Shown piece after piece: positions 4,385 to 60,472 of a stretch of 64,000 nucleotides of DNA. This DNA is from Dictyostelium discoideum (Eukaryota). Under the pieces are notes generated by a model that was not told the DNA's origin, ran no database searches, and saw only the letters and a list, made by a program, of their open reading frames with translations. How positions within the stretch are numbered: the stretch's first letter is position 1; the number at the start of each line of letters is the position of its first letter. Location: the NCBI GenBank assembly GCA_000004695.1, contig CM000151.3, positions 7,040,001 through 7,104,000 of the forward strand. The letters are read 5' to 3'. Made by a program: the position numbers and the translations under genes.

Positions 4385-4394
4385 AATTATTTAG

Positions 4395-5092: not shown

Positions 5093-5343
5093 TTAAAAAT
5101 TAACAAAATTTGGTCTTGTAAAAAAAGAAGATGTTGAGTTTTTACTTGAAATACTATTTGAGTTTGGAATAATTTTTTTTTTATTTTCATTTAGGTATAA
5201 AAGAGAGGTTGTTGAATTAATTTTATATTCTAAAAAACACAATGAATCTAAAATTAATTTTGAAAATAATAAAGTTAATTAACTATTAATAAACAATAAA
5301 TAAAATTAAAAAAATTAATATTGAAAAACTTACTAAGTAACAT
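5093..5343 (-). CDS. Small-family gene D. Exon 1 5334..5343 (ATGTTACTTA, GTAAGT donor), exon 2 5093..5247. MLLNSLCFLEYKINSTTSLLYLNENKKKIIPNSNSISSKNSTSSFFTRPNFVNF.
   Basis: Hand-derived frame is consistent. Diverged member. Confidence 0.45.
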
Positions 5344-6442: not shown

Positions 6443-6688
6443 ATGTTATTTAGTAGGTATTAAAATATAATGAAAGATAATATTAGATAAAATAAAGTTA
6501 TTAATTTTTTTTTATTTTTTTTTTTTTTAGAATCTATTATAACAATCTCAAAAAAAATTAATATCACATCAAATAAAAAGACCAATATTGAATTAAATAA
6601 TAATCATTCAATAGAAAATACCAATAATATAATTACTTTAAAGAGTACATCATCATATTTTACAAGACCAAATTTTATAAATTATTAA
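6443..6688 (+). CDS. Small-family gene E. Exon 1 6443..6452 (ATGTTATTTA, GTAGGT donor), exon 2 6531..6688. MLFKSIITISKKINITSNKKTNIELNNNHSIENTNNIITLKSTSSYFTRPNFINY.
   Basis: Splice and frame verified by hand. Confidence 0.55.
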
Positions 6689-6885
6689 AATCTTGTTAAA
6701 TATATTTAAATAATTAAAAACAAATAATAAATCTTGGGCGACTTTAAATTACAATAAAAATAATCGAATTTATATATATGTATATATTTTATTTATTTAT
6801 TATGAATTACAATGGTTTTTTTTTTTTTTTTATTAATTTATTTTTTTTTTTTTTTTTTTTTTTTTCCTAATAATTTTATTTGATT

Positions 6886-9800: not shown

Positions 9801-10545
9801 CAATATCTAAAGTATCACCTTTGGTTAGATAAGCGAAATTCTCTGGACCATAGATACCAAACTCTTGTTGTTCTTGTGGAGTTGCACCTCTACAGAATTG
9901 ATAGAAAATGTGGAAATTACGTTCACCCTTCAATTGGAAAACTACACGAGATTTCTCCAAGAGGTAATTTGTGATTTTACCACCCTCTGGTTCATTTTTT
10001 TGATTGAATTGAATTTCAAAGTATTTACCGAAACGTGAAGAATTATTATTACGAAGAGTTTTAGCATTACCAAATGCTTCCAACAATGGATTAGTCTCTA
10101 AAATGATTGATTTAACATGTTCTACCTTTTGATTTGATGAACTACCTCTTTCACCACTAACATCTGCAATATATTGCATAATCTTTTTTGCTGCTTCAGT
10201 TTTACCTGCACCTGATTCACCTGAAATAATGACACATTGATTCTCCTTTTCGTTGATCATACTTCTGTAGGTTTGTTCTGCAACTGCAAATACATGTGGT
10301 GGTAATTCAATACGTGATTTACCAATATACTCTTGTAAAACTTCATCTGAATACATTCCATCTATAAATTTAAATGGATTCACTGAAATTAATACATCAC
10401 CAATATTTGTATAAATAATATCCTTTTCAAATCTTTTCTTTAAATTATCTAAAATTTGATCATTGGAAACTTTTGATAATAATGTCATATCATCTAAACC
10501 TTCATTTTTCATTTGATTTCCCCATTCTGGTTTTTGTTGTGCCAT
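6886..10545 (-). CDS. myoC: Long-tailed class I myosin heavy chain. Motor with P-loop GESGAGKT, Gly/Pro/Ala-rich tail, C-terminal SH3. Two exons: 9627..10545 and 6886..9515; 111-nt intron with GTAAAT donor and TATTAG acceptor. About 1180 aa.
   Basis: Motor motifs GESGAGKTE and LEAFGNAKT. Tail repeats [12 protein letters not shown]3 [24 protein letters not shown]…WWQGEL. Length fits myoC (~1181 aa). Symbol is tentative. Confidence 0.8.
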
Positions 10546-24365: not shown

Positions 24366-25121
24366 TTTTTTTTTTAAATAAATAAAAATTAATAAACATA
24401 TATGATCATATTAAATTTGATATCAATTTTTGGTCTATTTTTAGGTTTTATTTTAATGTATATAATCATATTGTCTTTTTTTTTTTTTGGGTCTTTTTTT
24501 TTTGTGGGTTAGGTTTTATTTTAATTTTATTTTAATTTTATTTTTTTACTTTTTTTTTAATTGTTTTATTATTTTTGTTTAATTATTATTTTTTGATGGC
24601 AGATAATTGTTTTTTTTTTTATTTTTTTATTATTTTTTTTTTCAATTTGGGAAACTATCTACTATTAAAAAATAATAATAATTAAAAGTTAAATCTGTTA
24701 ATAAAAAAATTCTAAGGTGGTGGGGATCAAAAAGATCTTTTTTTATTAATTTATTTCTGGTGAATATTAAAAAAAAAAAAAAAAAAAAAACAAAAAACAA
24801 AAAACAAAATAAAAATGCACCAAGTAGGTCACTAAACAGAAAATTTGCTACAAATTAATGATTCTTATACTTAATTTAAAAGGGTCTTTTAATCTCATTT
24901 CGAAAGTTGGTAAGTGAAAATGAATGGGAAGAAATTTACTAAAAAAAATAAAAAATATAAAAATAAAAAAAAATTTAAAAAAAAAAATAAGTATAAATAA
25001 AGTTTTTTTTTTTTTTTTTTTTTTTTTCAAAAAATTAACATTTAATCATCTCAAGAAATAAGTAAAAATAAAAGTTCAATTAAACTTAAAAAAAAAAAAA
25101 AATTTCAATCAATCTAAAAAA

Positions 25122-25377
25122 ATGTTATTCAGTATGTTTTATTTTTTTTTTTAATTTTTTAAAATTATATTAAATGTTGTAGGGAATTTTCCATAAAATT
25201 TCACTACAGTAGCGTAGTGAATTTTATTATTTAATTTCACTACAGTAGCGTAGTGAAAAAAAAAAATCACTGACCTTAAATTTTTTTTTTTTTCAAAAAA
25301 CAAATAAAGTTTATTAAATTGAAATTTTATTTTTTGTTTTAATTATTATTTTATTTATTTTTATTATAATTATTGTT

Positions 25378-25410
<33 letters not shown>

Positions 25411-28329
25411 CAATTTTTTTTTTTTAAATTTTTTTCAATTTTTATTTGTTTATTAAAATGTAATTTTATTTTTTGTTTTAATTATTATTTTATTTATTAT
25501 TATTGTTAATTTTTTTTTTTTTTCAATTTTTTTTTTTTTAATTTATTTTTATTAATTTATTTTTATTAACTCCCTGAGTTGTTCAATTGCTTGATTTACC
25601 ATATCACTGTAAACACTGCACACAATTGAATTTTTTCTAGCTTTGTTACCTCTGGTGCATTTGATGTTTTTGCATTTTCCTTTGTATACAAAAAAGTCCA
25701 AATATAATTCGTTTTCTATTACAGTTTTTACACAATGTTGGTGAAATTGTTTTGATTTTAATTCTAATGCTTCTAACATCATATTTGAATTTTTAACGAT
25801 TAAAGCATCACCACTATTTACATATAGTACTTTGGCTGCTTTTTCGAGGAATTTAGTCAAATTTTCCTCTGAATCTAACTATTCTTCATTGCCATATTCA
25901 ATGGCTAAATTTCTTAAGAGTTTTATCGAATCTATTAATTCTTCGATCATTCTTTTTTTTTGAAATTTTTTTTTATTTTGTTTTTTCAATTTTTTTTTTT
26001 TATTTTGTTTTTTCAATTTTTTTTAAGTTTTATTTTTTTTTATTTTTTTTTATTTTTTTTAACAAATGTAATTTTTTTTTATTTTTTTCAATTTTTTTTT
26101 TTTTTAATTTTTAATTTTTTTTTTTTTTTTTAATTTTTTGTGTTGATTTGTGTTTTTTTTGTTTTTTTGATTTGGCCACTTGTTTTTATTTTCTAATTTC
26201 CCCATACCCCCTTCTATTAATTGCAACCAAATCAAGTTCTAATTTTTGTGTCCTTGTTGACTTTGTTTTTGCAACTTTTTTTGAAGGTATCACATTAACG
26301 ATTTTTCCTATTGATGGTGATTTGGAAGGTGATTTAAATGGTGATTTAAATGGTGAATTGGAAGGTGATTTAAATGGTGAATTGGAAGGTGAAATGGATG
26401 GTGATTTGGAAGGTAATTTAAATGGTGATTTGGAAGGTGATTTAAATGGTGATTTAAATGGTGAATTGGAAGGTGAAATGGATGTTGATTTGAGAGGTGA
26501 TTTGGATGTTGATTTGAGAGGTGATTTGGATGGTTTAGAATGTGATTTTAAAGGAGGTTTATTAACAATTGGTATCTTATGAGGACGGCCTCTGAGACGT
26601 TTAACAGTTGTTACTATACCACTACCAGATTGTGGTATAGTATATGATGGTATTATTTGCACTTGAGGTATTGGTGGTACTATTTCTTTTAAATTCATAT
26701 CCTTTCTCAAACAATTCATTAAATTTGGCGCTGTTGGATTATTATTTAAAAATGGGAGTATTTCTTCTTGTTCCATTTCATTATTGAGTTTGTGTTGAAA
26801 TGGATTATCGTTAATGATAGGTGGAATATTTGATGGATTGTTAAGAGCATCTTCCAAAACCCTAAATGGATCATTTTGTGTTACCAATTGATGCAAGTTG
26901 AAATTGGATAAATCCTTACCAAGATTTTTAATAAACTGAACCAGAAATTCAATAACTTTCCCATCATTATTTAAATAAAGACCAGAAGTAAAAGAATCAA
27001 TATCTTTTTGTATGTTTGGCGATGTTCTAAAAATATCAACTGTTGATTGTTTATAAAGAACCAACTTGTTACCTCCTACAAAACCAGAGTATAAACCTTT
27101 TTTTTGAAGGCTATTGATTCCATCTTCCAAAAATTCAAGTTTATAAAGTTGTTTAGTGTCTTCCTGTATTACCTTATGAATTTTACACAAAATCAATATT
27201 TTCTATTAGAATTAAATATAAAATTTGTTAATTATTACTGTTTCATATATTATTAATCTTTATGTTTTAATTACTTACATTATTTTTTTTAATTTCTAGA
27301 AAGAGTACAGTATCACCAACTTTCAATCCCTTTGGTGGTTTTGAATTCCATTGATTTTGGTAACTTGTGAGATTTTCAAGAATAATAGCTGTTCTTTCTT
27401 CTTTTGAAACATCTGAAACACCAATTGATTGAGAGTCTTGTTCTGATTGAACATTAATAAACAAAGGAACAATACCAACAGCTTGAGATGGTGTCATTTT
27501 AATTGTTCTTGTTTTTGTATTATTGTAATCATACAAAGCTTGTTTTAATAGTTCAGAAAGAGACCTAGAAGTACCATCAAGAAAACTAAAATTTATTTAT
27601 AAATGATTAATTAATAAACATATCGATAATTTATATTGTTCAAAATATCATACTCTTGTTGTTTTAATTTTGAGATCCTCTCCTTGATAGTTCGATTCAA
27701 TCTTTCTACCATACCTTGAGTTGTTGGTGTACGAGGAGCTCCATGTGCTGACTTGGAGCCTGGAAAAAGTTTTAGGAATTCTTTTTGGACTTTGTTTTTA
27801 AATTCACGTCCATTATCGCAGTGCCATACTTTCACAGAGTTTTAATATAAAAGTTACAAAACATCATATAAAAAATGATTGATACCAAACCTTTTATTCT
27901 ATTTCGTTGGCAAATGTCACACGTATCTACTGCATCAGATACAAAAGAATACAATCCCATATTATAATATTTAGTCTTGTAGTTCCCATAGGTTGCATCT
28001 CTTCCTATATGACCTTTATGCATTTCTTCCCAGAGTGATACCATTCTATAATCATTAATTACTTCTAAACACACTTCTTTTGATATATTTCTATCTCCGC
28101 CACAATTCATGACTTTTTTTTCAATTCTAAATAATTTTTCTTTTCTGTTTCTGTTTTTTATTGGTCAGAATTTAAAAAATGATTGTGTTATGGTAAGGAA
28201 AAATATTTACTCATCATGTAAAAATTTATAATTTTTATGTTTAGTATTTTCAAAATTATTATCTTCAATAAATTTTAAATAATTTATAATTTCATTTATT
28301 TTATCTTGTTTCATTTTGGGAAAATGAAA

Positions 28330-28364
<35 letters not shown>

Positions 28365-28837
28365 TGTTGGGGAAAAAAAAAAAAAATTTTGGCGCAAAAA
28401 AAAAAAAAAAAAATAAAATAAAAAAAAAAAAAAATAAAATAAAAAAAAAAAAATAAAAAAACTTAAATAGAACTAATAATCAAATAAAAGATAATAATTT
28501 AATAAACTTTATTTGTTTTTTGAAAAAAAAAAAAATTTAGGGTCAGTGATTTTTTTTTTTCACTACGCTACTGTAGTGAAATTAAATAATAAAATTCACT
28601 ACGCTACTGTAGTGAAATTTTATTGAAAATTCCCTACAACATTAAATATTAATTTTTTTTATTTTAATTTTTATATTAGAATCATTAATTTCCATTTCAT
28701 TCGAATCATCAGAAGTATCCTCAAACTTTGCTCAATTAAATAATGGTGTCTGTTTTTCTTCATGTAAAAGTGCAATTGAATTAAAAAGCAGTCAAACATC
28801 AACATTCTTTACAAGACCAAATTTCTATCATATTTAA
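25122..28837 (+). CDS. Small-family gene T. Exon 1 25122..25131 (ATGTTATTCA); the intron is split by the transposon insertion; exon 2 28680..28837. MLFKSLISISFESSEVSSNFAQLNNGVCFSSCKSAIELKSSQTSTFFTRPNFYHI.
   Basis: Exon 1 plus GTATGT lie 45 nt before the left TIR. Acceptor tattag lies 38 nt after the right TIR. Exon 2 is in frame with a diverged tail. Probably inactivated. Confidence 0.5.
25175..25320. repeat. Left terminal inverted repeat of the DDT-A-like element; contains two copies of the sub-terminal palindromic motif CACTACAGTAGCGTAGTGA.
   Basis: Reverse complement matches 28496..28641. Confidence 0.8.
25552..28313 (-). CDS. Transposase (retroviral-integrase-like; zinc finger, DDE core, C-terminal basic SPxK repeats), split by short introns. 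Exon fragments about 28214..28313 (possible first exon), 27832..28110, 27611..27835, 27267..27536, 26186..27196, 25552..25937.
   Basis: HKGHIGRDATYGN…CDICQRN (HHCC). WHCDNGREF…GAPRTPTTQGMVERLNRTIKE (rve-like). RGRPHK plus KSPSKSPFKSP repeats. Exact exon joins not resolved. Confidence 0.6.
26320..26530. repeat. ~15-bp tandem repeat (ggtgatttaaatggt-like, ~14 copies) inside the transposase 3' region. Encodes S-P-(F/L)-K-S repeats on the minus strand.
   Basis: Direct reading. Mirrored as GDLNG repeats in the antisense track ORF 26148..26582. Confidence 0.7.
28496..28641. repeat. Right terminal inverted repeat of the DDT-A-like element.
   Basis: Reverse complement of 25175..25320. Confidence 0.8.
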
Positions 28838-28951
28838 AGACCAAACTGAATTATTCATTAAAAATTGTCCGACATATAAATAATCCACACCATTAAATAA
28901 AATAAAATTTTTTTATATTTGATTTTTTAAATACACCTTAAAAAAACAAAT

Positions 28952-28995
<44 letters not shown>

Positions 28996-29334
28996 CCTTA
29001 ATCTAAATTAATTATATAAAATTGATATCATTATAAAAATAAAGATATATTTTATATATTTATTTAATATCATTATTTTAATTATTAAGTAAGGTATTAA
29101 ATCTGTATCCAAAATCACCAAAAACACCAAATCGGAATTGGGGGGAGAGACAAGGGTTTTTCACGTGTTTTTAATTTTAAAAAAAAAAAAAAAAAAAAAA
29201 TATTAATTGATGTTTATATGTATATTAATTTGTTTTTTTATTAATTTTTTTCAAGTATGGGATCGGCCTTTGAAATAATTATTTTTAATTCGATTTTATT
29301 GTTTTTTTTTTTTTTCCCAGTTTTTTTTTTAATT

Positions 29335-29630
29335 TTAATAATTAATAAAATTTGGTCTGGTAAAGAAAGCTGTTCTCTTTAATGCACATTCAACATTTGT
29401 TGAGTAGTTAGAATCAAAGATTGAATTTTCCATAAAATCACGTGATGTATTTTTTGATTCGTTTGTTTTTGATAATAAAATTAATGATTCTATTTAATAA
29501 AATGAAATAATTATATTATTATAAAAAAATAATTATTATTATTATATTTTTTTTTTTTTATTCTTTTTTCTGTATTTTTTTACTATAAAACTAGGTTCTA
29601 ACATGTTGTTATTTACATACTTAATAACAT
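29335..29630 (-). CDS. Small-family gene F. Exon 1 29621..29630 (ATGTTATTAA), exon 2 29335..29489. MLLKSLILLSKTNESKNTSRDFMENSIFDSNYSTNVECALKRTAFFTRPNFINY.
   Basis: Splice and frame verified. Threonine codon ACC in place of ACA in the motif is a synonymous change. Confidence 0.55.
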
Positions 29631-30219
29631 TTTTTTTTAAAGGATTTTATTTAATTTAATTATTAAAATTAAAATTGTGATTTTTTTTTTTATTTTTTTT
29701 TTTTTTTCTTGACAAAAACTATTTATACTGATTTTTTTTTTTTTTTTTTTTTATAATTACCACATTTTCATCTTTAACCACATACATATAAAATTTGTAA
29801 ATAATTTTTTGTTTCTATTTTTAACAAAATTGTTTTTTTGGGTTTATTTTGACTACTTCTTAATAGATTTAAATTTTATTCCAATAAATTATATAGAATA
29901 ACAATAACTAGAAACATACAAATTCACATCTAAAATTAATTATTTCATTCCTTTTTTGAAATTTGAATATGTTTTATTTGAATTTAATAATAGTTTTTAT
30001 AATATAGTAATATTTAAGTTACAATGAGCAGAAATGCTTTTAAAATTTAATGAAATTTTAAAAAATAAAAAAATAAATGGGAAAAAAAAAAAAAAAATTG
30101 TTTTTAAAAGTTATTTATTTTTTTTATACTGTTTTATTTTTATTGTTTTTTTAAATCAAGTAAAATGTCGGCCTTGAATTAATTTTTTTGTTTAAATTTT
30201 TTTAGTTAACTTTTTCTTT

Positions 30220-30520
30220 TTAAAAGTTAATAAAGTTTGGTCTTGTAAAGAATGTTGAAGTACTTTTAATTGAGGTAATAAAATTTATGGATTCATTTGT
30301 TTTTTTATTTAAATCATTTGAAAAAGAAATCGTAGTTTCAATGTTTGTATTTTTTAAAGAAATTAATGATTCTATAATATTTAAAAAAATAAAAATAATA
30401 AATATTAATAATCAGAACTTGATTTTTTTTTTTTTTATTTTTTTTATTTTTTTTATTTTTTATTTTATTTTATTTTTTTTTATTTTATTTTATTTTTTTC
30501 AAAAACATACTTAATAACAT
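30220..30520 (-). CDS. Small-family gene G. Exon 1 30511..30520, exon 2 30220..30371. MLLKSLISLKNTNIETTISFSNDLNKKTNESINFITSIKSTSTFFTRPNFINF.
   Basis: Splice and frame verified. Confidence 0.55.
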
Positions 30521-31149
30521 TTTTTATTTGTTTATATATTTTTTTATTTTATTTGATTTGATTTTAATTTTTTTTTTTATTGTTCTATTTATATTTTTTT
30601 TTTTTATTTTTTTATTTTTTTTTTTATTTTTAAAAAATTTGTTTTTCATTTTTACTTTATTTATTTATTTTTAGCACACTTCACTCTACACACTACACAA
30701 TAAACAAATAAATAATTTTGTAAAAAGATTGTTGGTGCCATTTTTTTTTTTTTTACTCTTTTTTAAAAATTTTAATGTTATCGAAATATAATATAATTAT
30801 AAAAAATAGATTTAATTGTATTGTTAATAATAGATAGTTTTTAATAGTAATTTGTATAGAATCAACATTTAATAAATAATTTAATTTTATATGTTGTTAT
30901 ATAAAATATATAGATAAAATCAAGATCAAATGAAGTGCATTCAATTATTTCATATCATTCAATTTCTTCTTTTGCTTAAATAAAAAAAAAATAATAAAAA
31001 AAAAAAAAAAAAAAACATGTACATTCAATGTATTATTTCATAATCCAATTCTATATAATTTTTTAATATAGGATTGCCATCATTAATTTTAAACCATTTT
31101 TAAATATAAAATTAACAAGACACATATATCGATATCTTTCCCAAATAAG

Positions 31150-31207
<58 letters not shown>

Positions 31208-32163
31208 ATCTTTAATCCAATTTTTATTTTATTTTAACAATAAACAAATAAAAATAAAAATATTGGTAATATAGTTAAATTTAATTTCTTTACTTAAGTT
31301 TTTCCAAAATAAAATAAAAATAAAAATTTTAAAAATTCTTTCATTTTTTGGATTAATTTTAAAAATAAAAGAATAATGGCACCAAAGAATTTCTTATTTT
31401 TTTAATTTTTATTATTTTAATTATTTTTAATAATTTAATAATTTTTTGGAATAAAGAACATCGAAAATATTGTGTTTAAAACAAACTATGAATCTCCTTT
31501 ATTGCATTTATATAGATATCTCTTTTTATGTACACTAATAAAAATAATTCTTTTACTTTTAATTAAAAGTTTTATTTGATTATTTAGACAATAATGATCT
31601 GATAAATTGAATTTTGGTTCATTTCAAATATAATTAAAATAAAAGGAAACTTCAATGGTCTTGTGGTGGGTTATTGTTTTTTTAGTGTTAGATTTTGGGG
31701 TTTATTTTTAATTTTTTTTTTTTTTTTTTTATTCATTTATTTTTATTATTTTTTTTTTTTTATTTTTAATGTTTTTTTTCATATTATTAATAAAATTAAA
31801 AACCTATCTATTAGTAAAAGGAATTTTATCAGCAATTATTAGGGACATCAAATCTCACCAATGTTCTTTTTAAAGTTTAATTTAACAACAACCCACAATT
31901 TACAAATTTTTATATGATCATATTTTAATGTTGAACAAATAATTATTATTATTATTATTTTTTTTCTAGAAGAGGGTTAAACAAATAAATAAATAAAAAT
32001 AAAAATAAATAAAAATAAAAAAAAAAAAAATAATTAAAAATAAAAAATCTGGTAAAAAAAAAAAAACTATAAATATTTTTTTTTTTTTTTTTATATAAAG
32101 CATTAAACAAATCGAAAAAAACTAAATTTTTAACTATAAAAAAAATTAAATTTAAAAAAAAAA

Positions 32164-32186
32164 ATGTTAGCAAGTAAGTGTCTAAA

Positions 32187-32225
<39 letters not shown>

Positions 32226-32417
32226 AATCTAACTTTATCCTTTTTTTAATTAGAATCATTAATCTTCTCTAAAAACTCATCAAAGGCAGACAAAATTTTT
32301 TCAAATGATAAATTGACTGTTACTTCTTTTTCTTTAAATGCCACTTGCGAAAAAATTTCAGCTTCAACTACAACTTCTACCTCTATTTTTACAAGACCAA
32401 ATTTCTTGAACTACTAA
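32164..32417 (+). CDS. Small-family gene Ha. Exon 1 32164..32173 (ATGTTAGCAA, GTAAGT donor), exon 2 32254..32417. MLAKSLIFSKNSSKADKIFSNDKLTVTSFSLNATCEKISASTTTSTSIFTRPNFLNY.
   Basis: Splice and frame verified. Convergent with H. Confidence 0.55.
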
Positions 32418-32783
32418 AAAAAATATATAAATAAACTAAATATATTGGCCGACTATAAATTTAAAATTCTAATTTTAATTGTTTGTTTGTTTTTTTTTTT
32501 TAATAAATTTACCAATAATTTTATTAATTTAAATGATTTTATTAATTTAAATGATTTTCCTTTTAAAATTAAAAAAAAAACAATTTCATTTCTAATTAAT
32601 TTTTTTTATTAATTTTTTTTTTTCAAACCCTCCATTACCTTTTACTAAAAAAAAAAAAAAAAAAAAATTATCTTATTTTGGTTTTAATATATGTACATGT
32701 TTTTTTATTATTTATTTAAATATACAGTTTTTATATCAAGTATTTGTCGGCCTTGATATTTTATATTATTTTTTTATAAAATT

Positions 32784-33031
32784 TTAAAAATTTAAAAAAT
32801 TTGGTCTTGTAAAAAAAGAAGTTGCGTTCTTAATTGAAACAATTTCATTTTTTGAAAAGTTATTTAAAGGTGTTTCACTATGGATACAGTTTAATGAAGA
32901 TGAGTTTGTTTTGTTTGAAATTGAAATTAATGATTCTAAAATAATAATAAAAAAAAAATTAGAAATTATGTTTTGGAAAAAAGAAAAAAAATTGTTTTAA
33001 TATTCATTGCATTATACATACTTAATAACAT
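32784..33031 (-). CDS. Small-family gene H. Exon 1 33022..33031, exon 2 32784..32935. MLLKSLISISNKTNSSSLNCIHSETPLNNFSKNEIVSIKNATSFFTRPNFLNF.
   Basis: Splice and frame verified. Promoter module at 33140-33330 on the minus strand. Confidence 0.55.
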
Positions 33032-33555
33032 TTTATTATTTTTTTATATAGTTTTTTTATTTATTTCTAAATTTAGAATTTTTGTTTTATTTAAAATGAT
33101 TTTTTAATTAATAATGAATTATTTTTTTTAAACTATTTATATTTTTTTTTTTTTTTTAAGTAAAAGTATTCAAAAACCACTTTTATCTGTTAAATAATAA
33201 AATTTAAAAAATAATTGAACAGATGTTGTCGACATACACACACTCTCAATATAAAAATAGTGTTATCACAAACTTTAAAAGAAGTATGTGCGAATAGATT
33301 TTATTTAATATAGAATCATAAAACCAAAATGATATTTTTTATATATTGATTTTAAAAATAAAAAAAGCAATTTATTATTTTTAATAAATGAAGAAATAAA
33401 TTTAATTAATAAATAAATAATTTAAAAGGGTTGGTTTAAAAAATAAAATAATTATTTAATATGAACCAAAATTAAAAAATGAATTAATTTTGAATTTTTA
33501 TTGGAATAATTGAGTATACATATATTTTTAATTGAATATTAATAAAAGTGAAAAT

Positions 33556-33655
33556 NNNNNNNNNNNNNNNNNNNNNNNNNNNNNNNNNNNNNNNNNNNNN
33601 NNNNNNNNNNNNNNNNNNNNNNNNNNNNNNNNNNNNNNNNNNNNNNNNNNNNNNN
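33556..33655. other. Assembly gap (100 N).
   Basis: Run of n. Confidence 1.
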
Positions 33656-33879
33656 ATGTCATCATTTGTATTTTTAATTTATAGTGTCATTTTTAGATAT
33701 TCTTTTTTTTTTTTTTCAATTAAAACTGAAATTGTATGTTTATATATATCAGTGTTTTATTTGAAATAAAAAAATAATAATAATAAATGAAGTAAAAATA
33801 TTCAAACCACTTGTTGATGATATCCATTATTTAAGTAATCATTGTTGAAAACATATATTTGATATTGTTGTTGTCAAAA

Positions 33880-34257
33880 AAAAAATTAATATGATTTCAA
33901 CAAGATTAATAAAATAGTTTAAATTATATTATTATTCTTGTTGATATCATTATCCTTGTTTTTTTGTTTTTAAAAACAATTGTCTTTACTTGTATGTCAA
34001 CATAATATTTTTACAAAATTTAAACAATTAATAAAATTGTGTGTTTATTAAATAGTGGTGGTGGTAGGAAGTGGTTGGGGTGGGGTGGTGGGAAGTGGTT
34101 AAATTTTACTTAAAATAATTATTTCGATTTAAAAAATAAAATAGAATTTAAAAAAAAGTATAAATACTTTTTTTTAATTTTATTTTTTATATCAAACAAA
34201 CATTAAATTAAAAACAAAACAAAAACATTAATTAAAAACTATGAAACTATAAATAAA
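33880..34257 (+). promoter_or_regulatory. Conserved family promoter module, example for gene Ia. Elements TTGTTGATATCAT, TTGTATGTCAACATAATATTTTTACAAA, a G/T-rich GTGGTGG block, ATTATTTCGATTT, the TATA-like AGTATAAATAC, and TTTTTATATCAAACAAA just before the ATG.
   Basis: Alignable with 37230-37583 (Ka), 40190-40606 (M), and in reverse complement with 1950-2250 (A), 33140-33330 (H), 35270-35460 (I), 38930-39070 (K). Confidence 0.5.
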
Positions 34258-34497
34258 ATGTTATTCAGTATGTATTTTTAATAAAAAAAACAATGAAAAT
34301 ATCAATGAATATAATATTAATTTAATATTTTTTTTTTAAATTTAGAATCATTAATTTCATTATCAAATAAAAATACCACCTTAAATTCATCTTTAATTTC
34401 AAATCAAACAAACAATGATTGTAATGAATTTAAAAATGAAATTACAAACAAAAGTTCTACTGCATTCTTTACAAGACCAAACTTTGTAAACTATTAA
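34258..34497 (+). CDS. Small-family gene Ia. Exon 1 34258..34267, exon 2 34346..34497. MLFKSLISLSNKNTTLNSSLISNQTNNDCNEFKNEITNKSSTAFFTRPNFVNY.
   Basis: Splice and frame verified. Exon 2 is identical to Ka. Confidence 0.6.
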
Positions 34498-34584
34498 AAA
34501 AAAATATTATGATAAAAACAATTCCGATAAAAAACTTGTACAAACAATAAAATCTATTTATTTATTTATTTATTTATTTTAAAA

Positions 34585-34632
<48 letters not shown>

Positions 34633-34944
34633 CCTTGAGTGATTTTTAAAGTTGGTTTTAAATTAATTTTTTAAAACTATTGATTTTTTGATATTTTATC
34701 TTTATTAATATGTCTCCTTTGGATTTTATTATTTGCCCACTTTTTCATTTATAAAAGTAATTCGTTTTTTTATCAAATTTTACATAATTTTAAAATTTTT
34801 TTTTTTGTCAAACTTTTCCACAAATAAATAAAGAAAAAACAGAAAAATTATTTTTTAATTTTAAATAAATATATAAATATATTTTTTTTTTTAAATGTAC
34901 AATTTGTTTATCGGTATTAAAATTTTTTTTTTTTTTTTTTTTTT

Positions 34945-35189
34945 TTAATAGTTTATAAAGTTTGGTCTAGTAAAGAATGCAGTAGAACTTATGTTTGTAA
35001 TTTCATTTTTTAATTGATTACAATCATTGTTTGGTTGATAAGAAATTAAAGATGATTTTGAGGTGGTATTTTTATTTGATAATAAAATTAATGATTCTAA
35101 AAAAAAAAAAAAAAAATTCAAAATTAAAATCAACTTCATTATAATATATTTTTAATTATAATTTTTAAAATATACCTACTGAATAACAT
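34945..35189 (-). CDS. Small-family gene I. Exon 1 35180..35189 (GTAGGT donor), exon 2 34945..35096. MLFKSLILLSNKNTTSKSSLISYQPNNDCNQLKNEITNISSTAFFTRPNFINY.
   Basis: Track ORF 34945..35139 covers exon 2. Splice and frame verified. Confidence 0.6.
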
Positions 35190-35705
35190 TTTTTATTTTT
35201 ATAGTTTTATATTTAGTTTTTTAAGATTTTATAATGTTAACTTTGTTCGATATAATAAATTAAAAAAAAAAAAAAGTATTTATACTGTTTTTTAAATCGA
35301 AATAATTAAGTAAAATTTAGATAAACACCCACAACCACCACCACTATAGCACATTTTTTTAAAAATTATGTAAAATGATTATGTTGATATACAAGTAAAC
35401 AGTAAAAAAAAAACAAGTATAATGATATCAACAAGAATAATAGTTTAATTTATTAACAACATTTTAAAAATATGTTTCCAACATCCATTTTTTTAAAAAA
35501 GGACTTAAAATTTTATTTAATTAATTAAAAAAATAATACAATAAAATTGTTTACAACAAAATTTAATTTTAATTTTTATGATTATTTAAAAAAGAAAAAA
35601 ATAAATGATAATTTGTAAAAAAAAAAATAAAAAATTAATTCTAATTATCTAGAATAATTTATTTTACAATAGTTTTTTTAATAAAAAAAGTTATTTGGTT
35701 GTTTT

Positions 35706-35745
<40 letters not shown>

Positions 35746-35936
35746 AAGCTAAATTGAATTATTTATTTAAAAACCTTTTTTGAACTAATTATAATAATAA
35801 AAATCAAAATAGCTAAACTATTTCACTCAAAAAAAAAAAAAAATGAAAATAATTTTTAAATTTTTTAAATAAATAAATAAATAGTTTTTTATTTGTACAA
35901 GTTTTTGTCGGCAATATAATTTTTTCAATAATTTTT

Positions 35937-36085
35937 TTAATAGTTTACAAAGTTTGGTCTTGTAAAAAATGCAGTAGAACTTTTACTTGCAATTTCATTT
36001 TTGAATTCAATGCAATTATTATTTAATTGATTTGAAATTAATGATTTTGAGGTGGTGTTGTTATTTGATAATGAAATTAATGATT
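35937..36085 (-). CDS. Small-family gene J, exon 2 only; the intron and exon 1 run into the gap. …KSLISLSNNNTTSKSLISNQLNNNCIEFKNEIASKSSTAFFTRPNFVNY.
   Basis: Frame verified. Confidence 0.5.
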
Positions 36086-36119
36086 CTAATAAATAAAAAA
36101 AAAAAAAAAAATAAGTATA

Positions 36120-36219
36120 NNNNNNNNNNNNNNNNNNNNNNNNNNNNNNNNNNNNNNNNNNNNNNNNNNNNNNNNNNNNNNNNNNNNNNNNNNNNNNNNN
36201 NNNNNNNNNNNNNNNNNNN
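36120..36219. other. Assembly gap (100 N).
   Basis: Run of n. Confidence 1.
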
Positions 36220-37583
36220 ATAAATCATTTTATTTCATATTTATGTTTAAAATATGTACATGAAATCACAATAAACAAAACAACACCTATGTTTAATGAT
36301 TGTTTAAAAATTGTTGATTTAAGAAATGATTTGTATTGATTCTAATAAATTAAAATTTTAACCACAAAATAAAATCCTACCACAATTTATTCTTCCATTC
36401 CTTCTACTATACCCTAACCTATTTAATTATATATTCTAGAATTTGAATTTATTGTAAAATAGTGTTTATACTCCACCAACAAAAAGGATTTAAAAACTAT
36501 TTTAAAAATCATAAAGCTTTAAAACAAAATGTTTGAAATTATTATTTTAAAAGGTTTGGAAAAAAAAGAAAAGAAAAGAAAAAAGAAAATGATATTATTT
36601 ATTAAAAAGAAAAAAACAAAAAAACAAAAAAAGAAACAAACTAAATCAAAATAAACCAATTTAGAATATAATTAATTTCTTGTTTTTCTTTTTTTTTTCC
36701 AAACTTTTAAATTTAGAAAATAATTGATTTCTTGTTTTTCTTTTTTTTTTTAGAATCGCTGGTGTATTTATTTTTTTAATTATTTTATTTTTTGATTTTG
36801 TTTTAATTTATTTCTCTTTAATTTTACTTTTTTTTCGAGTTGCTGATAGCTATGCTATTTATTTTTATTTTATTTTACTTTTACCATTTCTCTTTTATTT
36901 TGTTCTTTTTTTTTTTTAATGAATTTTTTTTTTTTCATTGTTTTAAAAACTTTTAAAAATGAAAAAAAGTATAGGAAAAATGAGAATCATAAAAAACAGG
37001 ATGATGAATAAGTTTTGATCACTTATATTTTTTAAAATATAGTGCATTTTTACATGACATATTATTATATTTTTTAAATTTGAATTGAAAAATTATATAA
37101 ATGAAGAAAAAAAATGAAAATTAATTAATGATGATATCAATTTTAAAACAATGATTGTTGAAAACATACAATATTTATGATTTTTATATGGTAGTTGAAG
37201 AAAATTATTGATTAAAAAAATTATTATCTATTAATAAAAAGGTTTTAAATTATATTATTATTCTTGTTGATATCATTTTGCTTGGCTTAATTTTATATTA
37301 ACATTTAACTTTACTTGTATGTCAACATAATATTTTTACAAATTTTAATTTATTTAATTTATTAAATAATTGTGTGTTTATTAAGTAGTGGTGGAGGGGG
37401 GTGGGTGGTTGTGAGTGTGTGATTAAATTAATTATAACTAAAAATTATTTCGATTTTAAAATTAAAAAAAAAAACAGTATAAATACTTTTTTTAATTTTA
37501 ATTTTTTATATCAAACAAAAATCATTAATTAAAAACTAAAGTTAAATAAATTAAAAACTATAAAAAAAAAATATATTTATAAA

Positions 37584-37839
37584 ATGTTATTCAGTATGTA
37601 TTTTTTTTTTTATTTTTTTATTAGAATTATTTTTTAAAAATATCAATGAATTTAATATTAATTTAATATTTTTTTTTTTAAATTTAGAATCATTAATTTC
37701 ATTATCAAATAAAAATACCACCTTAAATTCATCTTTAATTTCAAATCAAACAAACAATGATTGTAATGAATTTAAAAATGAAATTACAAACAAAAGTTCT
37801 ACTGCATTCTTTACAAGACCAAACTTTGTAAACTATTAA
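37584..37839 (+). CDS. Small-family gene Ka. Exon 1 37584..37593, exon 2 37688..37839. Product identical to Ia.
   Basis: Splice and frame verified. Promoter 37230-37583 is paralogous to 33880-34257. Confidence 0.6.
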
Positions 37840-38493
37840 AAAAAAAAATAATATGATATAAACAATGCCGATAAAAAACTTGTATATTTAATAAAAAAAA
37901 TTAATTATTTATTTATTTATTTATTTAAAAATAAAACCAAATTTTTTATTTTTTTATTTTTTTTTTTTTATTTTTTTTTTTATTTTTTTGAACATTTTCT
38001 ATCCTGACCCTGCAAATATAGCACCAAAAAAAAAAATTTAATTCAAAAAAAATAAATTTAAATAAAATTAAATGTTTTTTGAACTTCGTTTTTTTTTTTA
38101 TTTTATATAAATTTTTTTTTTTTTTGGGTACTTTTGTTCACTTTTTTCTTTTTATTTTTATACTTAAAATCTTTCAAAAAAAAAAGAAAAAACAAAAATT
38201 GATCAAATAATGAACTTAATATATTTCTTACCAAAAAATAAATAATAATAATAATAATAACGATAAAAATAATACTCAGTTCTTATTTTACATATGTAAC
38301 CTTTTTATTTTTTTAGATAATTTGTCATAATTATTATTTTTATTATTATTATTTAAAGTTTAAAAAAAAAAAAAGAAAAAAAAAAAAAATTTTAGTTTTT
38401 TTAATTAAGTTTTGTTTATTAATTTTAATTTATTTTACAAGTAAAGTTCGGCCATGTAAATTTATATATATATATAAAGTTTTTCGTTTTTTT

Positions 38494-38736
38494 TTAATAA
38501 TTTACAAAATTTGGTCTTGTGAAAAAGGCAGTTGGACTCTTCATTGTAATAGAATTATTTGTAGTACTAATTGAATTTATATTATTAGATTCAATTGAAC
38601 TTGATAATGATGATGAATTTTTGTTTGATAATGAAAGTAAAGATTCTATTTAAAAAAAAAAAAGTAAATTAATTAATACAATGACTTTAAAAATTTTTTT
38701 TTTTTTTTTTTTTTTTTTCAACTTACTGAATAACAT
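38494..38736 (-). CDS. Small-family gene K. Exon 1 38727..38736, exon 2 38494..38645. MLFKSLLSLSNKNSSSLSSSIESNNINSISTTNNSITMKSPTAFFTRPNFVNY.
   Basis: Splice and frame verified. Confidence 0.55.
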
Positions 38737-39601
38737 TTTAAATTATAGTATATTAATATAGTTTTTATATTTGTTTTTTTATTTATTTAATTAATAAAAT
38801 TTTTTTTTAATGATTAAAATAATTTTTTTTTTTTTTATTTATACTTTTTTTTTTATTTTTAGTTTAAACATTTAATATAACCCCCAAAAAACCACTTAAT
38901 AACACTAATAACAAATTTGTAAAATAGATGTTGTCGACATACATGTGTTTTAAAAATTAAAAGGTTTTTTTGATAAACACACACACATTAAAAGAAGAGA
39001 TTTTATTATTTTAATTAAAAGATAATTTTAAAAAATGTAGATATGGTATCAACATCATTTTCTTTTTGACAAAAATAAAAATAATTATTTTAAATTTTAA
39101 TTTTTAATGATTATATAATTATTTACCCGCTCATTGATCACTATTTTTTTCCAAATAATTGTTATCATCATTTTTAAAATCAATTTTCTTCTTTTATAAG
39201 TTTTTTATTTTATTTTTATAATAATTTTAATTTTCTTAAGGAGTATTAATATGGATATAATAACAATATAATTGATTTTTAAAGTAAATCAAGTAAAATA
39301 AAAATAACAAAATTTCTTCATTTACTTTATTTATTTTAAAAATAAAAAGGTTTTTTATTTAATTTTAAAAAATTATAACATCATCCTTTTTTAAAATAAA
39401 AGAAGATAAAAATGATGAAATTATTTTATTATTTTTTACTTAATGATGTATTATCTTAGGGGACATCAAATTGAGAAAAAAAAAAAAAAATTATTTAAAT
39501 TAAAAATTTTATTCTTTTTTTTTTTTTTTTTTTTTTCTTTCCTTAAATTTATATAAAAACTTAAAAACTAGAACTTCTAAAAATAAATAAAAGAAATTAA
39601 A

Positions 39602-39843
39602 ATGCTATTTGGTATGTTAAAATTAATTTTATATAATTGGTTGATATTTATTTATTAATATTTTAAATTTTAGAATCAATTAAATTAAACATAAAAATAA
39701 ATAATTCTTTAAATGAATGTTCAAATTTATTAATTAGTGAAAATAATAAACATTCATTATATATTAATTCATTAAATACAATTACAACTAGAAATCAAAC
39801 TAGTAGCTTTTTTTTTTCTAGACCAAATTTCCAATGTTTTTAA
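39602..39843 (+). CDS. Small-family gene L, divergent. Exon 1 39602..39611 (ATGCTATTTG), exon 2 39674..39843. MLFESIKLNIKINNSLNECSNLLISENNKHSLYINSLNTITTRNQTSSFFFSRPNFQCF.
   Basis: Splice and frame verified. The promoter does not align with the others. Confidence 0.45.
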
Positions 39844-40309
39844 AAATAGATAACTAATTGTTAATTTACATTAAGAATAATTGTTCGAATAACTCAATAT
39901 TTAATTATTATTATGAATTAAATCATTTTTAATTTTAGAAAAAATAATAATTTATAAAAAAAATAGTAAAAATAAAAAATAAATTATTATTATTAAATTT
40001 CCAAAATCATACTTCATTTTTTTGATAATAACAATAATAATTATTTTGACAAAAAAAAAAAAAAAAAAATTGATAATTATTTCTTTTTGATAAACAAAAA
40101 TTAAAGTTGATATCAATAAATTTATTAGCCGGACAATTATTCAATATATTTTAAAAAATCAAATATCTAAAATATAAATCTTGATTTTAATAAATGTTGA
40201 TATCATACATATTATTTCTGCTTCTCATATAAATTTAAAAATAGCAACATATTCAATTTACAAATATATTTTATTTTTCAATCTATAGATTTATCAATTT
40301 TTTATTTTT

Positions 40310-40349
<40 letters not shown>

Positions 40350-40606
40350 ACCCATAGTAAAGAAGGGGTCAATTTTTAATTATCAAGTTATACGATTATT
40401 TCTATTTTAATTTTTATTTTATTTTTATTTTTATTTATTATTTTACTTTAATCAAAAAAAAAAAAAAAAAAAAAGTAAATATAAATAGTATTTTTTTTTT
40501 TTAAAAAAATAAATACTTAAAAATAAATCACAAATCAAAACATTAATTAATATAAATTATTAAAAAAAAAAAAAGAAAAATATTAAAAAAATAAATATAT
40601 TTTAAA

Positions 40607-40847
40607 ATGTTATTCAGTATGTATTTTAAATTAATTTTATTTCATTGTAAATTATAAATAATAAATATTAATTATTTTTATTTTTTTTTTTAAAATAGAA
40701 TCATTAATTTCATTATCAAACAATGTTTCAAAAGTTTCAACATTAATTTCAGTTGAAAACAATGAAAATTCTATAAATACTACAACAAATACTATAACAT
40801 TAAGAAGCACAGTCTTCTTTACAAGACCAAATTTTATTAATTATTAA
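40607..40847 (+). CDS. Small-family gene M. Exon 1 40607..40616, exon 2 40699..40847. MLFKSLISLSNNVSKVSTLISVENNENSINTTTNTITLRSTVFFTRPNFINY.
   Basis: Splice and frame verified. Confidence 0.55.
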
Positions 40848-41016
40848 TTAAAAAAATAATTTATATATAAAAACAAAACATGGCCGAAATTTACATGTTT
40901 TAAAAAAAGTTAACGAAATAAAATCCTTTTGATTATAAAAAAAAAAATAAAAAAAAAAATTATATGTTTTCTTTGTATTTTTATTTTTTATTTTTTATTT
41001 TATTATTTTATTATTT

Positions 41017-44000
41017 TTAACTATCTTTTTTAAAAGTTAAAAATTTTTCAAAAGAAAATTTGTTTGTACCAAATATTGATAATAAAACTGGTAATAAGAC
41101 TAAACCATGAACAGCTGCTAATAAACAAATACTTATATACATTTTGAAATAGTATATGATAAAGATTTCTGATTTTGAAAAAGCTAAAACTACACAACCT
41201 AAAAGTTTTGTGATAAAGATACCACTAAATATGTTTGCACCCATTTCTGATATTGCAAATTTAACCTTTTCATCTCTTGAATAATGTTTTGGTGATCTGA
41301 TGAATGTACTTGCAATATGAACGCAAAATTCTATTGATATACCAACAGCCATAATTAAATTTACGACAGAGATTGCATTCAAAGATATATCCCATAATGT
41401 CATGACGGCCAAAAGGTCAACAACCGTCATACCAACACAAAGTACAACCAATATTGAAACCAATGGATTCATTAATATAGCTAGTGATACGAAAAATACA
41501 CTTCCCAATGCCAATAAAATACCTTTTAATGCCACTTGTTTTATGGTTAAATAAGCTTCAAAGTAACAATAGAAAATACTATAAGTGAAAACTTGAGCAT
41601 CTGAATGGTCAGCCAAATAATAACTTGTGGCAAGTGCATTGATGAAATCATTTTGAGTTCTTAGAGTTGTATGATAAGCATCGAAACGAGTTGCTGCAAT
41701 ACTACCATCACTATTGAATTTTACATCACCAGTATATGCTAAACCTGCCAATGGACATTGATCTGTATTTGTGAAATTTAAAAATGCAGGTAAATACTTT
41801 TTAAATAGTGATGGATCGGGTCTACCAGATTTTTCCAATGGGAAACATTGTTGATCACAACCAGGTTCATCACTATTACAATAGGTACCATTATCGAATG
41901 CTGTACAACAACCGACAGTATTACTCCATTGTAACATATCATCTAACCATGATGAAATTCCAGGTGAAATGAATGGTGCATTATCAAATGTATTTATAAC
42001 TGAATTATTATTACAACCACCTACTGTACAAAATTGATTTTGAATTGATGGTATGGAGAAATCATAATTTCCTTTTACAACTATATACATTGGTGGTCCA
42101 ACCTCTAAGAATTGATTCATATTTGTGAAATAAGCTTGAAGATAAGAGTTTCTTGGTAGTGCAACCTTTTGATCTAAACCAATTGGAATTTGATATGCAT
42201 AATTTATTGAAAACAATAACATTGCAATAAAGAATATTATAATTAATAATTTTGAAATTGGATGAACTAAAAATGGAGCATAATATTTTGTAAATAATTC
42301 CTTTAATAATGTTGTTTTCTTTTTTGATTTCTTTTTTAACATTCTCTTTTTTGATAATGGTGATGATTCTTCATTATTAATATTTAAACCATCAACAACA
42401 TTTAATGCATCAACATCATAATTAAAATTATGAGCATTATCATTTCTATCATCATCTTCACCATTAATTAAAAGTGGTTCATTTTCAATTTCTTCTTGAT
42501 TATTATTATTATTGTTATCATTGTTATTAAGATTATTATTATTATTATTATTATTACTATTTAATTGTTGATCAATATTATCAAATGGATCATCTTCTAA
42601 ATCTGAATTATCACCATTTAATGATAAGCATGGTAAACAATCAACTCTTCTTGATTGTAAACGTTTTGTATCTAAAACTAATAAACAAGCGAATGCACTA
42701 ATTTGTAATAGGAAGTCAAAGAAAACTGCAATTGAAGCATAGAATGAAAATGCTTTTACTGCTGGCATTTTAGTTAAGGAACCTAATAGGAAAGCAAATG
42801 ATTCACTTAATGATGCTAATGCAATTGATGGACCAACCTTTGCAAGTGTACGAGCAAATGATTCTTCTGGTGTTGGCATTTGATGATGATTTTGATTAAA
42901 ACCACTAATTGATGATGATGATGATGATGATGCAACATGTAAAGATTCAAAAGTATTTACTAAAATGAATATATTATCAACACCAATGGCTAACACTAAG
43001 AATGGTATAACTTCACTAATGATTAGAGTTGCTTTTATACGTAGAATTGAACAAATACCAACAGAGATTATAATTGAACATGCAACTATACAAATACCAG
43101 ATAGACCCAATGCAAATCTTGAACGAATGAAAAATGAATTGAATCTTCTTGGAAATGGGTAATAACTACCTAAACTAAGGGAGATATATAAAAACATAAC
43201 GAAATAACTAACGATAATCGTTGGTATATCTGCATTACCTTCTCTTGCCAATTCATCTTGTACTGATCTTTGAGCATTGAATGATATTTCGAATGGACAT
43301 GAAGGATCATTTGAAATCTCTTGAATTTTATTTAACCAAACTTGTTCCCACATCATTGATCTATCAATCATTGAATCTGGATTATTCAATAGGAAAGTGG
43401 TGACAAATGCTTTTGCCAACGTTGAATTATCATTCCAACCACCCAATACTATCTTTGGATTTACAGGTACACCAGTTGAATCCATACATTCTGGTGAAAG
43501 TAATTGTGATTTACATTGTTCAAACCAACCAATTACATTATCCTTTTGTTGATTTAATTTATTTTGATCACGTTGAAAAATACCTGTTATACTCTCAACC
43601 AAACAACCACGTTTAGTAGGTTCAAAACATAATTGATCCAATGTTATAATCCTATTTGAACCATCATTAAGCTTTACACTTGTATTCTTCATTAGTTGTG
43701 TCTCTATATCAATTAATGATTTAAATAAATCATAATTGAAAATCGTTGATAAATTCTTTTGTTTTGGTATTAAAATTAATTGTTCAACACGATAGAATGG
43801 ACCGAAATGATCATCGAAATATTGTTTCTCAATTGCTGATCTACTATCTGGTGATACCCATAATTTTACTGGATCAGTTTCAATCTCTAATGAAATAATA
43901 CCAATACCAATACCAATTGTAAATAGTAAACAACATATTAAAACTATTATTGGTCTTTTTGTAATATTAATTCCATACCAATAAAATACTTTTTGAAAAA

Positions 44001-45437
44001 TATTTGAATAATTGCTACCACTATTATTGTTATTATTTCTATTATTATTGGTATTTTGAATTTCATCATTATTAACTTGTTGATTAATTATACCACCACT
44101 AATACCAAGTATTCTTCTTGAATTTCTATTTGAAGCTGTTTTATCAACAATTATACAAGCTAAAATTACTATTGATAATAACAATAATGTTATCATTATA
44201 TAAATGGATACACCCATTGCAAATGAACAATTCCATTCTTTTCCATCATCTAATTTCCACATACAACTTGCTGTTTTACCATCTATCATTTGATGAGTAG
44301 TTACAAATGGTATCAATACTGTACAAATGAATAAAATACCCAATATTATCATCATTACTGTTTTAAACTTTTTACCCTTAAAATATCTAATCTTTGATGA
44401 ATATTTAAATATTAACCAAATGCTAAATCCAAATAATAATGATAATAAAAATAATAAAAATGACCAAACTATCCAAATTGTTAAATGTGGTACTCTTAAA
44501 AAAAAAAAAAAAAAAAAACCAAAATATTAATATATATATTTAAAATATATAATAAATAATAATAATAATATTATAAATTTACTTACTCTATTAATAAATG
44601 AGTTTGAATGATTGTATCATTTAATAAACCAATATCTTTATAGGAAGGGGGAGGTAAACAAGCATCACGACATTGATCACAAGAACAACCTTCAGAACAT
44701 GGTACGATTGCATCATTATAACCTTCATTATTAAAAACCCAATTTAATTCTTTGAATGTTGGATTCACTGCAGAGAAAACACCAGTGAAGAACAATTGTG
44801 CAGTTGGAAACATTACACCAAATGGTTGAGCACCATTGGCATGTACATCTCTACATGAATTATATAAACCATTGGCGAAATCTGGATGTAAAACGAAATC
44901 GATGCTAATGATTTGGTCAGTTTTATTATCAACTTTAGTTGGTACCATAAATGATTTCTGATAGGGTGAACATGACGATGCACACCATAGATTATAAAGA
45001 TTAACCATACAACTACTACATCTACCAAATATACCACCCGCTACCAACATATTGGTTTGTAAGATTAAAGTTTGATTATAATTACAACATGATTCAATTG
45101 AATATTCTGGATGTGTTAATTGACATGTATTTGGTGCGATTTCCGTATTATTCTGAAATTTTAATATTAAAAAAAAAAAAATAATAAAAACATAAAAAAT
45201 AAAAAAAAAAAAAAAATAAAAAAAAAAAATAATTAATTTTTCATAGAAAATAAATATTTTTATTTTTATTAATAATAAAAAACTTACTAATGGTGGAAAA
45301 TCTTTTGCTTCAACAAATGAAGATGAAACGCCATACATTGAACAACCTAATGTTGTATTATAAGGGTAAGGTGATTGACATTGTATTATATTTATAATCG
45401 ATAAAAAAAAGATTAAAAAAACTATTATTTTATTCAT
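41017..45437 (-). CDS. NPC1 (Niemann-Pick C1)-like sterol transporter with N-terminal cholesterol-binding domain and sterol-sensing domain. Three exons: 45288..45437, 44587..45152, 41017..44494. About 1350 aa.
   Basis: NTD Cys pattern (CCNYNQTL…GRCSSCMVNL…). SSD GLSGICIVACSIIISVGICS…AIGVDNIFILV. 13-TM-like topology. Splice donors GTAAGT with acceptors TTTCAG and TTTAAG; frames check. Confidence 0.8.
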
Positions 45438-46305
45438 ATTGAATGAATTTTATTTTTATTTTATTATTTTAAAATTATTATTATTATTCTATTTCATTAA
45501 AATAAAAATTTATTTTTTATATTTTTTTTTTTTTTTTTATTTTTTATTTTATTTTTTTTTTTAGTGTGTGTGATTGGCAATTATTATTTATTTATTTTTT
45601 TCAACCTACAAAAAAAATTAATTATTGAAGGTATTGAAATTTTATTATAATAAATGAATTGGAACACTAGGATGTAATAATTGGTAAATAAAAAATAAAA
45701 AAAAAAATAAAAAAATTAATATAATAAATAAAAAAAAAAATAAAAAAAAAAAATAAAAAAAAAAAAAAATAAAAAAAACCAATATTATTTGAACAACCCC
45801 ACAACACACAAAAATTTTGCATTAAACAACGGGTGTTTATTTTTAGTAATAATAAAAAAAATAATAAAAAAAATTAAAAAAATTAAAAAAAAAAAAATAT
45901 TTCTATATATATTTTCAATCATTTGAAATATATTGAATTCATCCTAATTTGATTATTATTTAAATCATGTCCGAAATATAGACATATGGTATTTGGAATA
46001 ATGGTTTTTTTTTTTTTTTTTTTTTTTGAGATATTTTGATTATAATATAAAAAAAAAAAAGTGAAGTTTCAAAAAAAAGATTTTTTGTTGGCTTGGAGAG
46101 ATTGAAAAAAAAAAAAGAAGATTTTTTTTTTTTTAAGAAATAATTTTTTAAGAAATAATTTTTTCATTAGAAAAAGAATTAATTAAAAAAAATTGGAAAC
46201 AGAGATAAATTCTGAATACTAATACTAATATTTTCAATATTTAAGAATCTAAATTTGGATTTGATTTTTTTATTTTTGAAAAGTTTTGTTTTTATTTTCT
46301 AGCCG

Positions 46306-46338
<33 letters not shown>

Positions 46339-46502
46339 TTCTTTAGTTTTCAAGAAAATATCTGTTGTTTTTTTTTCTTCATTTTTTAAAAATTTTACGA
46401 ATAACAACTCTTAAGAAATTTTAATTTTTTTTTTTTTTTTTCTGTACAAAAAATAAAGAAATTTTTTTTTTTTTTAAATTAAAAAATTTCTAAACTCAAA
46501 CA

Positions 46503-48710
<2,208 letters not shown>

Positions 48711-60435: not shown

Positions 60436-60472
<37 letters not shown>

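Follow-up and report, generated by a model that had tools for sequence, protein, structure and literature searches.

What is the 3467-bp element that interrupts the intron of a small gene (here gene T) in Dictyostelium discoideum, did it arrive as one unit, and can it move by itself? The locus lies within a window of 64,000 nucleotides (nt), the whole stretch of DNA analysed here (assembly GCA_000004695.1, contig CM000151.3, positions 7,040,001 to 7,104,000), to which coordinates refer unless another locus is named. This stretch belongs to chromosome 2 of D. discoideum AX4, and two of its small proteins exactly match AX4 chromosome 2 entries (one of them DDB_G0276707 and DDB_G0276613, the other DDB_G0276655). 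A preliminary description had presented the element as a complete DNA transposon of a "Tdd-4/DDT-A-like" type. Our analysis leads, with high confidence, to a modified answer: a copy of Tdd-4 that entered the intron as one unit, carries an internal deletion of 388 bp and belongs to a non-autonomous derivative of the family.

The element spans 25175-28641, starting with TGTTGTAGGG and ending with CCCTACAACA, and its termini (TGTTG...CAACA) fit the TGTNR pattern of Ginger2/Tdd elements. Its ends are terminal inverted repeats (TIRs) of 146 bp, one at the transposase gene's 3' end (25175-25320, plus strand) and the other at its 5' end (28496-28641, minus strand), and 144 of the 146 positions are identical (98.6%) when one arm is set against the reverse complement of the other. 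Arm-to-arm identity collapses immediately beyond 146 bp, leaving a loose A/T-rich pairing of the element ends up to ~283 bp, which probably lies behind the 260-bp repeat length given for TDD-4 by Bao et al. (PMC2836005). Each arm holds two copies, spaced 36 bp, of the 19-bp subrepeat CACTACAGTAGCGTAGTGA (25202-25220 and 25238-25256 in the first, 28560-28578 and 28596-28614 in the second); the window contains exactly these four, against 0 expected by chance. Directly outside the arms stand two copies of TTAAA (25170-25174 and 28642-28646), and a 5-bp match of the flanks has a chance probability of ~0.006 at the local base composition.

The boundaries are fixed by an empty allele. The preliminary description had proposed looking for empty and filled alleles in other strains, and an empty one is present in another D. 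discoideum strain (assembly GCA_054859385.1, locus L003), where the first 520 bases align unbroken with window 24895-25174 joined to 28647-28860. At L003 the site, ...ATCATATTAAATATTAAT..., has TTAAA only once and bears no footprint, which settles both element boundaries and the 5-bp duplication, and means that the 3467 bp entered as one unit and are polymorphic between strains. The bounds, the TIRs of ~146 bp, their duplicated subrepeats and the TTAAA target duplication, all proposed beforehand, are therefore borne out by the arm match, the subrepeat count and the empty allele. Three things mark the insertion as young, namely the 98.6% identity of the arms, the 98.9-99.7% identity of the element to other copies, and the empty site of the other strain.

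On its minus strand the element carries an intron-split gene with predicted splice sites. AX4 annotation already holds this gene, since the exons of its model DDB_G0276645 (P0018, described as an "integrase catalytic domain-containing protein") match the element at 100% identity. Exon 1 (28211-28314, MKQDKINEIINYLKF...HDE) matches the N-terminus of P0003 and P0016 and is followed by a 60-nt GT-AG intron (28210-28151) with an inferred acceptor. The next exon (27891-28150) encodes an HHCC zinc finger (H..H...CDIC) that matches Pfam PF17921 Integrase_H2C2 (E 8.8e-8, 32.6 bits against a gathering cut-off of 25.5). Beyond a hybrid intron (27829-27890), which comparison with a full-length copy attributes to the 388-bp deletion, follow an exon with the remaining catalytic residues (27654-27828, Pfam rve_3; second Asp in VWHCDNGREF, Glu in QGMVERLN), a further exon (27279-27585, FLDGTSRSLSELL...LFLEIKKNN) and a large C-terminal exon (26186-27202) that matches P0018 residues 235-572 at 100% identity and ends with a stop after ...YGEIRK. 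Within the latter are 15 SPXX repeats with a 12-nt period (about 26278-26565). The PF17921 match and the P0018 exon mapping uphold the intron-split minus-strand transposase with an HHCC zinc finger that had been proposed, and the suggested SPxK-repeat tail is found as the SPXX repeats. A long isoform may end in a last exon at 25879-25950 (MIEELIDSIKLLRNLAIEYGNEE then TAG), its splice being predicted; AX4 model DDB_G0292352 (P0001) splices ...AINRRG to MIEELID...GNEE*. As the TAG after ...GNEE is identical in all three Tdd-4 copies compared, it is a feature of the family and not damage in the window copy.

The relationships of this protein place the element in Tdd-4. P0018 is 90.7% identical (gaps included, 291 columns) to DDB_G0282919, which is named Tdd-4 in dictyBase (table in PMC12405889). 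The motifs GPY/F and YPYY, whose absence separates Ginger2 from Ginger1 (PMC2836005), are absent from P0018 and from the full-length transposases P0002 (693 residues) and P0003 (708 residues). TDD-4 has been described with a 5-bp duplication, TGTNR termini and an H2C2 plus DDE protein (PMC2836005). On these sequence grounds the element is assigned to Tdd-4, a cut-and-paste transposon of the Ginger2/Tdd superfamily with a retroviral-integrase-like transposase.

Comparison copies from other strain assemblies (loci L001, L002 and L004) reveal what the window copy has lost. Against the full-length copy at L001 4722-10790 (strain assembly GCA_054883475.1), it lacks a 388-bp segment (L001 6275-6662) at a junction, 27836|27835, that shows CT microhomology, and the deletion takes away the end of intron 2, the complete exon after it, the intron beyond and the first part of the following exon. 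The segment is unlikely to be itself an insertion in the longer copies, because it encodes conserved integrase strands; that it exists is confirmed by L004, a copy from a divergent strain that is ~90% identical, truncated on one side and differently ended. Adding 388 bp to 3467 bp gives ~3855 bp, near the 3839 bp reported for TDD-4 (PMC2836005). When aligned with the integrases of prototype foamy virus (PFV) and Rous sarcoma virus (RSV), VWHCDNGREF falls on the second catalytic Asp (D185 region of PFV) and QGMVERLN on the Glu (E221 region), whilst the segment aligning with the first-Asp strands of both lies within the deleted part, where IILCIDSFTKF aligns to LVVVDGMTGF of PFV. The DDE core claimed in the preliminary description is consequently incomplete, with the first-Asp region taken by the deletion and the second Asp and Glu kept. 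A complete core is present in full-length P0002 and P0003, so its absence from the window copy marks a defective copy and not another family.

The deleted form occurs well beyond this locus. A copy at L002 5920-9354 is 98.9% identical end to end, shares the deletion junction exactly and stands between the two copies of a 5-bp duplication of its own, GCTAA; in the full-length L001 copy the duplicated sequence, directly at the same termini, is TCATC. The junction peptide RIKVWHC is encoded in the AX4 models DDB_G0276645, DDB_G0282083, DDB_G0292352 and DDB_G0292954 (chromosomes 2, 3 and 6), and a second strain has it in two models. In the AX4 annotation, genes of the deleted form equal or outnumber those of the full-length form, and one full-length copy has been recorded in AX4 (PMC2836005, Table 2). 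Because the same junction recurs at other loci with their own 5-bp duplications, the deleted form appears to be a propagated non-autonomous subfamily that full-length copies move in trans. Under such a mechanism, the deleted copy would be unable to make active transposase and would be excised and re-inserted by that of the 3.8-kb full-length Tdd-4 copies with which it shares the genome. The enzyme would recognise the intact 146-bp TIRs, probably by their paired 19-bp subrepeats, and cut the target with a 5-bp stagger. Here the 3467-bp unit inserted antisense into a 76-nt intron and duplicated TTAAA.

Several points weigh against this account of a non-autonomous Tdd-4 derivative. The Tdd-4 name is reached step by step, by way of identities between proteins and the label that dictyBase gives to a close relative, and mobilisation in trans is deduced from the distribution of copies. 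In the PFV alignment a Gln occupies the column of the first Asp, and there are Asp residues at distances of 2 and about 30 positions; both of these candidates lie within the deletion, so the window copy cannot encode a complete DDE site. Finally, according to the gene models, splicing across the deletion would keep the reading frame, and a shortened protein may still be made.

That last point leaves room for an alternative in which the deleted form is maintained as a subfamily and its in-frame product binds the TIRs and dampens Tdd-4 transposition. The product would combine the zinc finger, the second Asp, the Glu and the SPXX DNA-binding tail without the first Asp, and such a role, if true, could account for the abundance of the deleted form relative to the full-length one in the AX4 annotation. 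We regard it as improbable.

Less probable still is a complete, autonomous Tdd-4 with a full HHCC-DDE transposase, as the preliminary description had it. Intact TIRs, a long spliced reading frame, the HHCC finger and a detectable part of the integrase core speak for autonomy. Yet the element, at 3467 bp, falls short of the ~3.8 kb expected of Tdd-4 (3839 bp for TDD-4; PMC2836005), and the 104 residues (GITKDF...GKPVK) that P0002 and P0003 hold between RNRIK and VWHCDNG, that is between the zinc finger and the second Asp, are gone. The Pfam rve match is confined to P0002 and P0003 and is lost in the window copy, which matches just rve_3. Comparison with the full-length copies thus refutes this reading.

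Assignment of the non-autonomous element to another Dictyostelium family, Tdd-5 or DDT-A, is similarly very hard to sustain. Tdd-5 is close in length (3783 bp), makes 5-bp duplications and belongs to the same superfamily with the same transposase type as TDD-4 (PMC2836005). Against it stand the Tdd-4 label of the 90.7%-identical relative DDB_G0282919 (PMC12405889), and the many near-identical copies found here, when dictyBase lists about 19 Tdd-4 sequences and only two of Tdd-5 (PMC3386910). There is, moreover, a more natural Tdd-5 candidate in a second integrase-type family (P0005 and P0006), which has 41% protein identity to Tdd-4. As for DDT-A, Tdd, DDT and thug rank in the literature as DNA-transposon families in their own right (PMC5633606, PMC2665215), which makes the joint label "Tdd-4/DDT-A" imprecise, and all the evidence gathered here points to its Tdd-4 half. 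The P0005/P0006 family, found in D. discoideum and D. cf. discoideum, shares the HHCC...DNG(K/R)EF...GMVER layout, is without the SPXX tail and is probably Tdd-5; at the P0005 locus (L005:4001-7307), which is nested among other repeats, no clear inverted-repeat pair was found.

A fragment of a long terminal repeat retrotransposon (its integrase region) or an integrase-derived host gene, suggested by the fact that only retroviral-integrase-type domains are recognisable in the protein, can be dismissed almost entirely, because the terminal repeats are inverted and not direct, no second long reading frame lies within the 3467 bp, which leaves no reverse transcriptase or RNase H, the empty allele lacks the entire unit, whose 5-bp duplication is clean, and near-identical copies lie at unrelated loci.

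The host of this Tdd-4 insertion, gene T, is read from the plus strand and starts with a 10-nt micro-exon (ATGTTATTCA, 25122-25131) followed by the donor GTATGT, an arrangement shared with at least 13 paralogues in the window. Its intron, now 3548 nt (25132-28679), would measure 76 nt without the element and one TTAAA, and is followed by exon 2 (28680-28837; ...FFTRPNFYHI, stop at 28835-28837). Spliced, the gene gives MLFKSLISISFESS...FFTRPNFYHI*, a product with no exact match in the protein collection searched. Joining 25174 to 28647, a check suggested in the preliminary description, restores the intron GTATGTTTTATTTTTTTTTTTAATTTTTTAAAATTATATTAAATATTAATTTTTTTTATTTTAATTTTTATATTAG, which aligns unbroken with L003 and is of a length typical of the family (45-139 nt). 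The claimed position within the intron of a small family gene is hence supported by the family-like micro-exon, the splice and the L003 alignment, with two corrections: the restored intron measures 76 nt and not 90, and the element begins 43 nt past the micro-exon and not 45. The diverged C-terminus FYHI* had been mentioned beside a likely disruption of T by the insertion. In the L003 orthologue the frame is kept, with a 12-nt in-frame indel and a few substitutions, and the protein likewise ends FYHI*; as this is the empty allele, the odd C-terminus predates the insertion and is unrelated to it. Nor does the insertion give the relative date for amplification of the gene family that had been hoped for: it is recent, the paralogues are ~40% identical in protein sequence, and it shows only that T preceded it, leaving no useful date for a much older amplification.

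The family of gene T comprises at least 13 further small genes in the window (49-66 codons). In each, the first exon has 10 nt and reads ATGTTATTCA or nearly so, a single intron measures 45-139 nt, and the C-terminus is FFTRPNF(V/I/L)N(Y/F). They lie at 1847-1946, 4394-4540, 5247-5343, 6443-6700, 29347-29630, 30226-30520, 32164-32430, 32790-33031, 34258-34510, 34950-35189, 37584-37850, 38480-38736, 40607-40860 and 60471-60695. The family proteins have no Pfam match, and only some of the genes are annotated in AX4 (DDB_G0276707, DDB_G0276613 and DDB_G0276655). Two of them, at 34258-34510 and 37584-37850, are separated by 3.3 kb and code for the same 53-residue protein (DDB_G0276707 and DDB_G0276613), with upstream regions and introns (78 and 94 nt) that resemble each other; judged by this similarity, the pair is a very recent local duplication. 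L003 is collinear with window 28641-47549 at 86-94% identity, and the same range over L003:1-20251 against window 24895-47549 is a large divergence for two assemblies labelled D. discoideum. Around window 33600-38000 the copies of the small genes are arranged differently in L003.

Two further observations concern the Tdd-4 copies themselves. Beyond the TAG of the possible last exon, a 108-codon open stretch (25552-25878, minus strand; LDSEENLTKFLEKAAK...CVKT...CKNIKC...QLRELIKIN) is intact in all three copies compared and is part of AX4 model DDB_G0287117. It may represent an alternative isoform, a second protein or untranslated sequence, and the 132-codon second reading frame that includes it (25552-25950) has no Pfam match. 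The full-length copy of L001 (GCA_054883475.1) holds three insertions of 758-760 bp (5108-5867, 7299-8056 and 9108-9867), whose ends CACAGCAAAGAAAAA...TTTTTTCTTCGCTGTG are inverted and whose interior holds repeats rich in TTTAAAG. Between two of these insertions 760/760 positions are identical; one insertion has a clear TA duplication and another is accompanied by a 30-bp loss of Tdd-4 sequence. This inserted element, which is absent from the 64-kb window, looks to have been very active recently and to prefer Tdd-4. It may be thug-S, given that one AX4 gene with homology to Tdd-4 as well as thugS has been mentioned (PMC3386910). No tRNA genes were detected in the window or in the L001 inserts.

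Overall, the element is an ordinary, already catalogued Tdd-4 copy and not a novel one: the family, its structure and its 5-bp duplication have been published, DDB_G0276645 is an existing AX4 gene model, and the copy matters little beyond annotation. The contribution of the locus is a clean pair of filled and empty alleles between D. discoideum strains, from which it follows that the deleted form of Tdd-4 moved recently. As by-products, the diverged end of the host gene can be placed before the insertion, and amplification of the host family should not be dated from it.

Set beside known systems, DDT-A is likewise a D. discoideum DNA transposon often found beside Tdd elements (PMC2665215), but is set apart from Tdd by the classification in the literature (PMC5633606, PMC2665215). 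With Tdd-4 the window copy shares the TIRs of ~145 bp, TG...CA ends, the 5-bp duplication, the intron-split gene, the HHCC finger, the integrase-type core and the SPXX tail, as well as a DNA sequence 98.9-99.7% identical to that of further copies from D. discoideum assemblies. From the 3839-bp reference it differs by the 388 bp missing in the region of the catalytic core, and in nothing of kind. The original account by Wells (1999) reportedly described 3.8-kb and 3.4-kb deleted versions of Tdd-4, with six introns and 15 SPXX repeats, and the window copy would then be the 3.4-kb version. Its closest parallels in form are Ds derived from Ac and the deleted P elements, in which intact ends are likewise combined with a disabling internal deletion and copies with the same deletion occur at several loci, a combination that here, too, implies mobilisation in trans; unlike in those systems, the transposase of Tdd-4 is of the integrase type.

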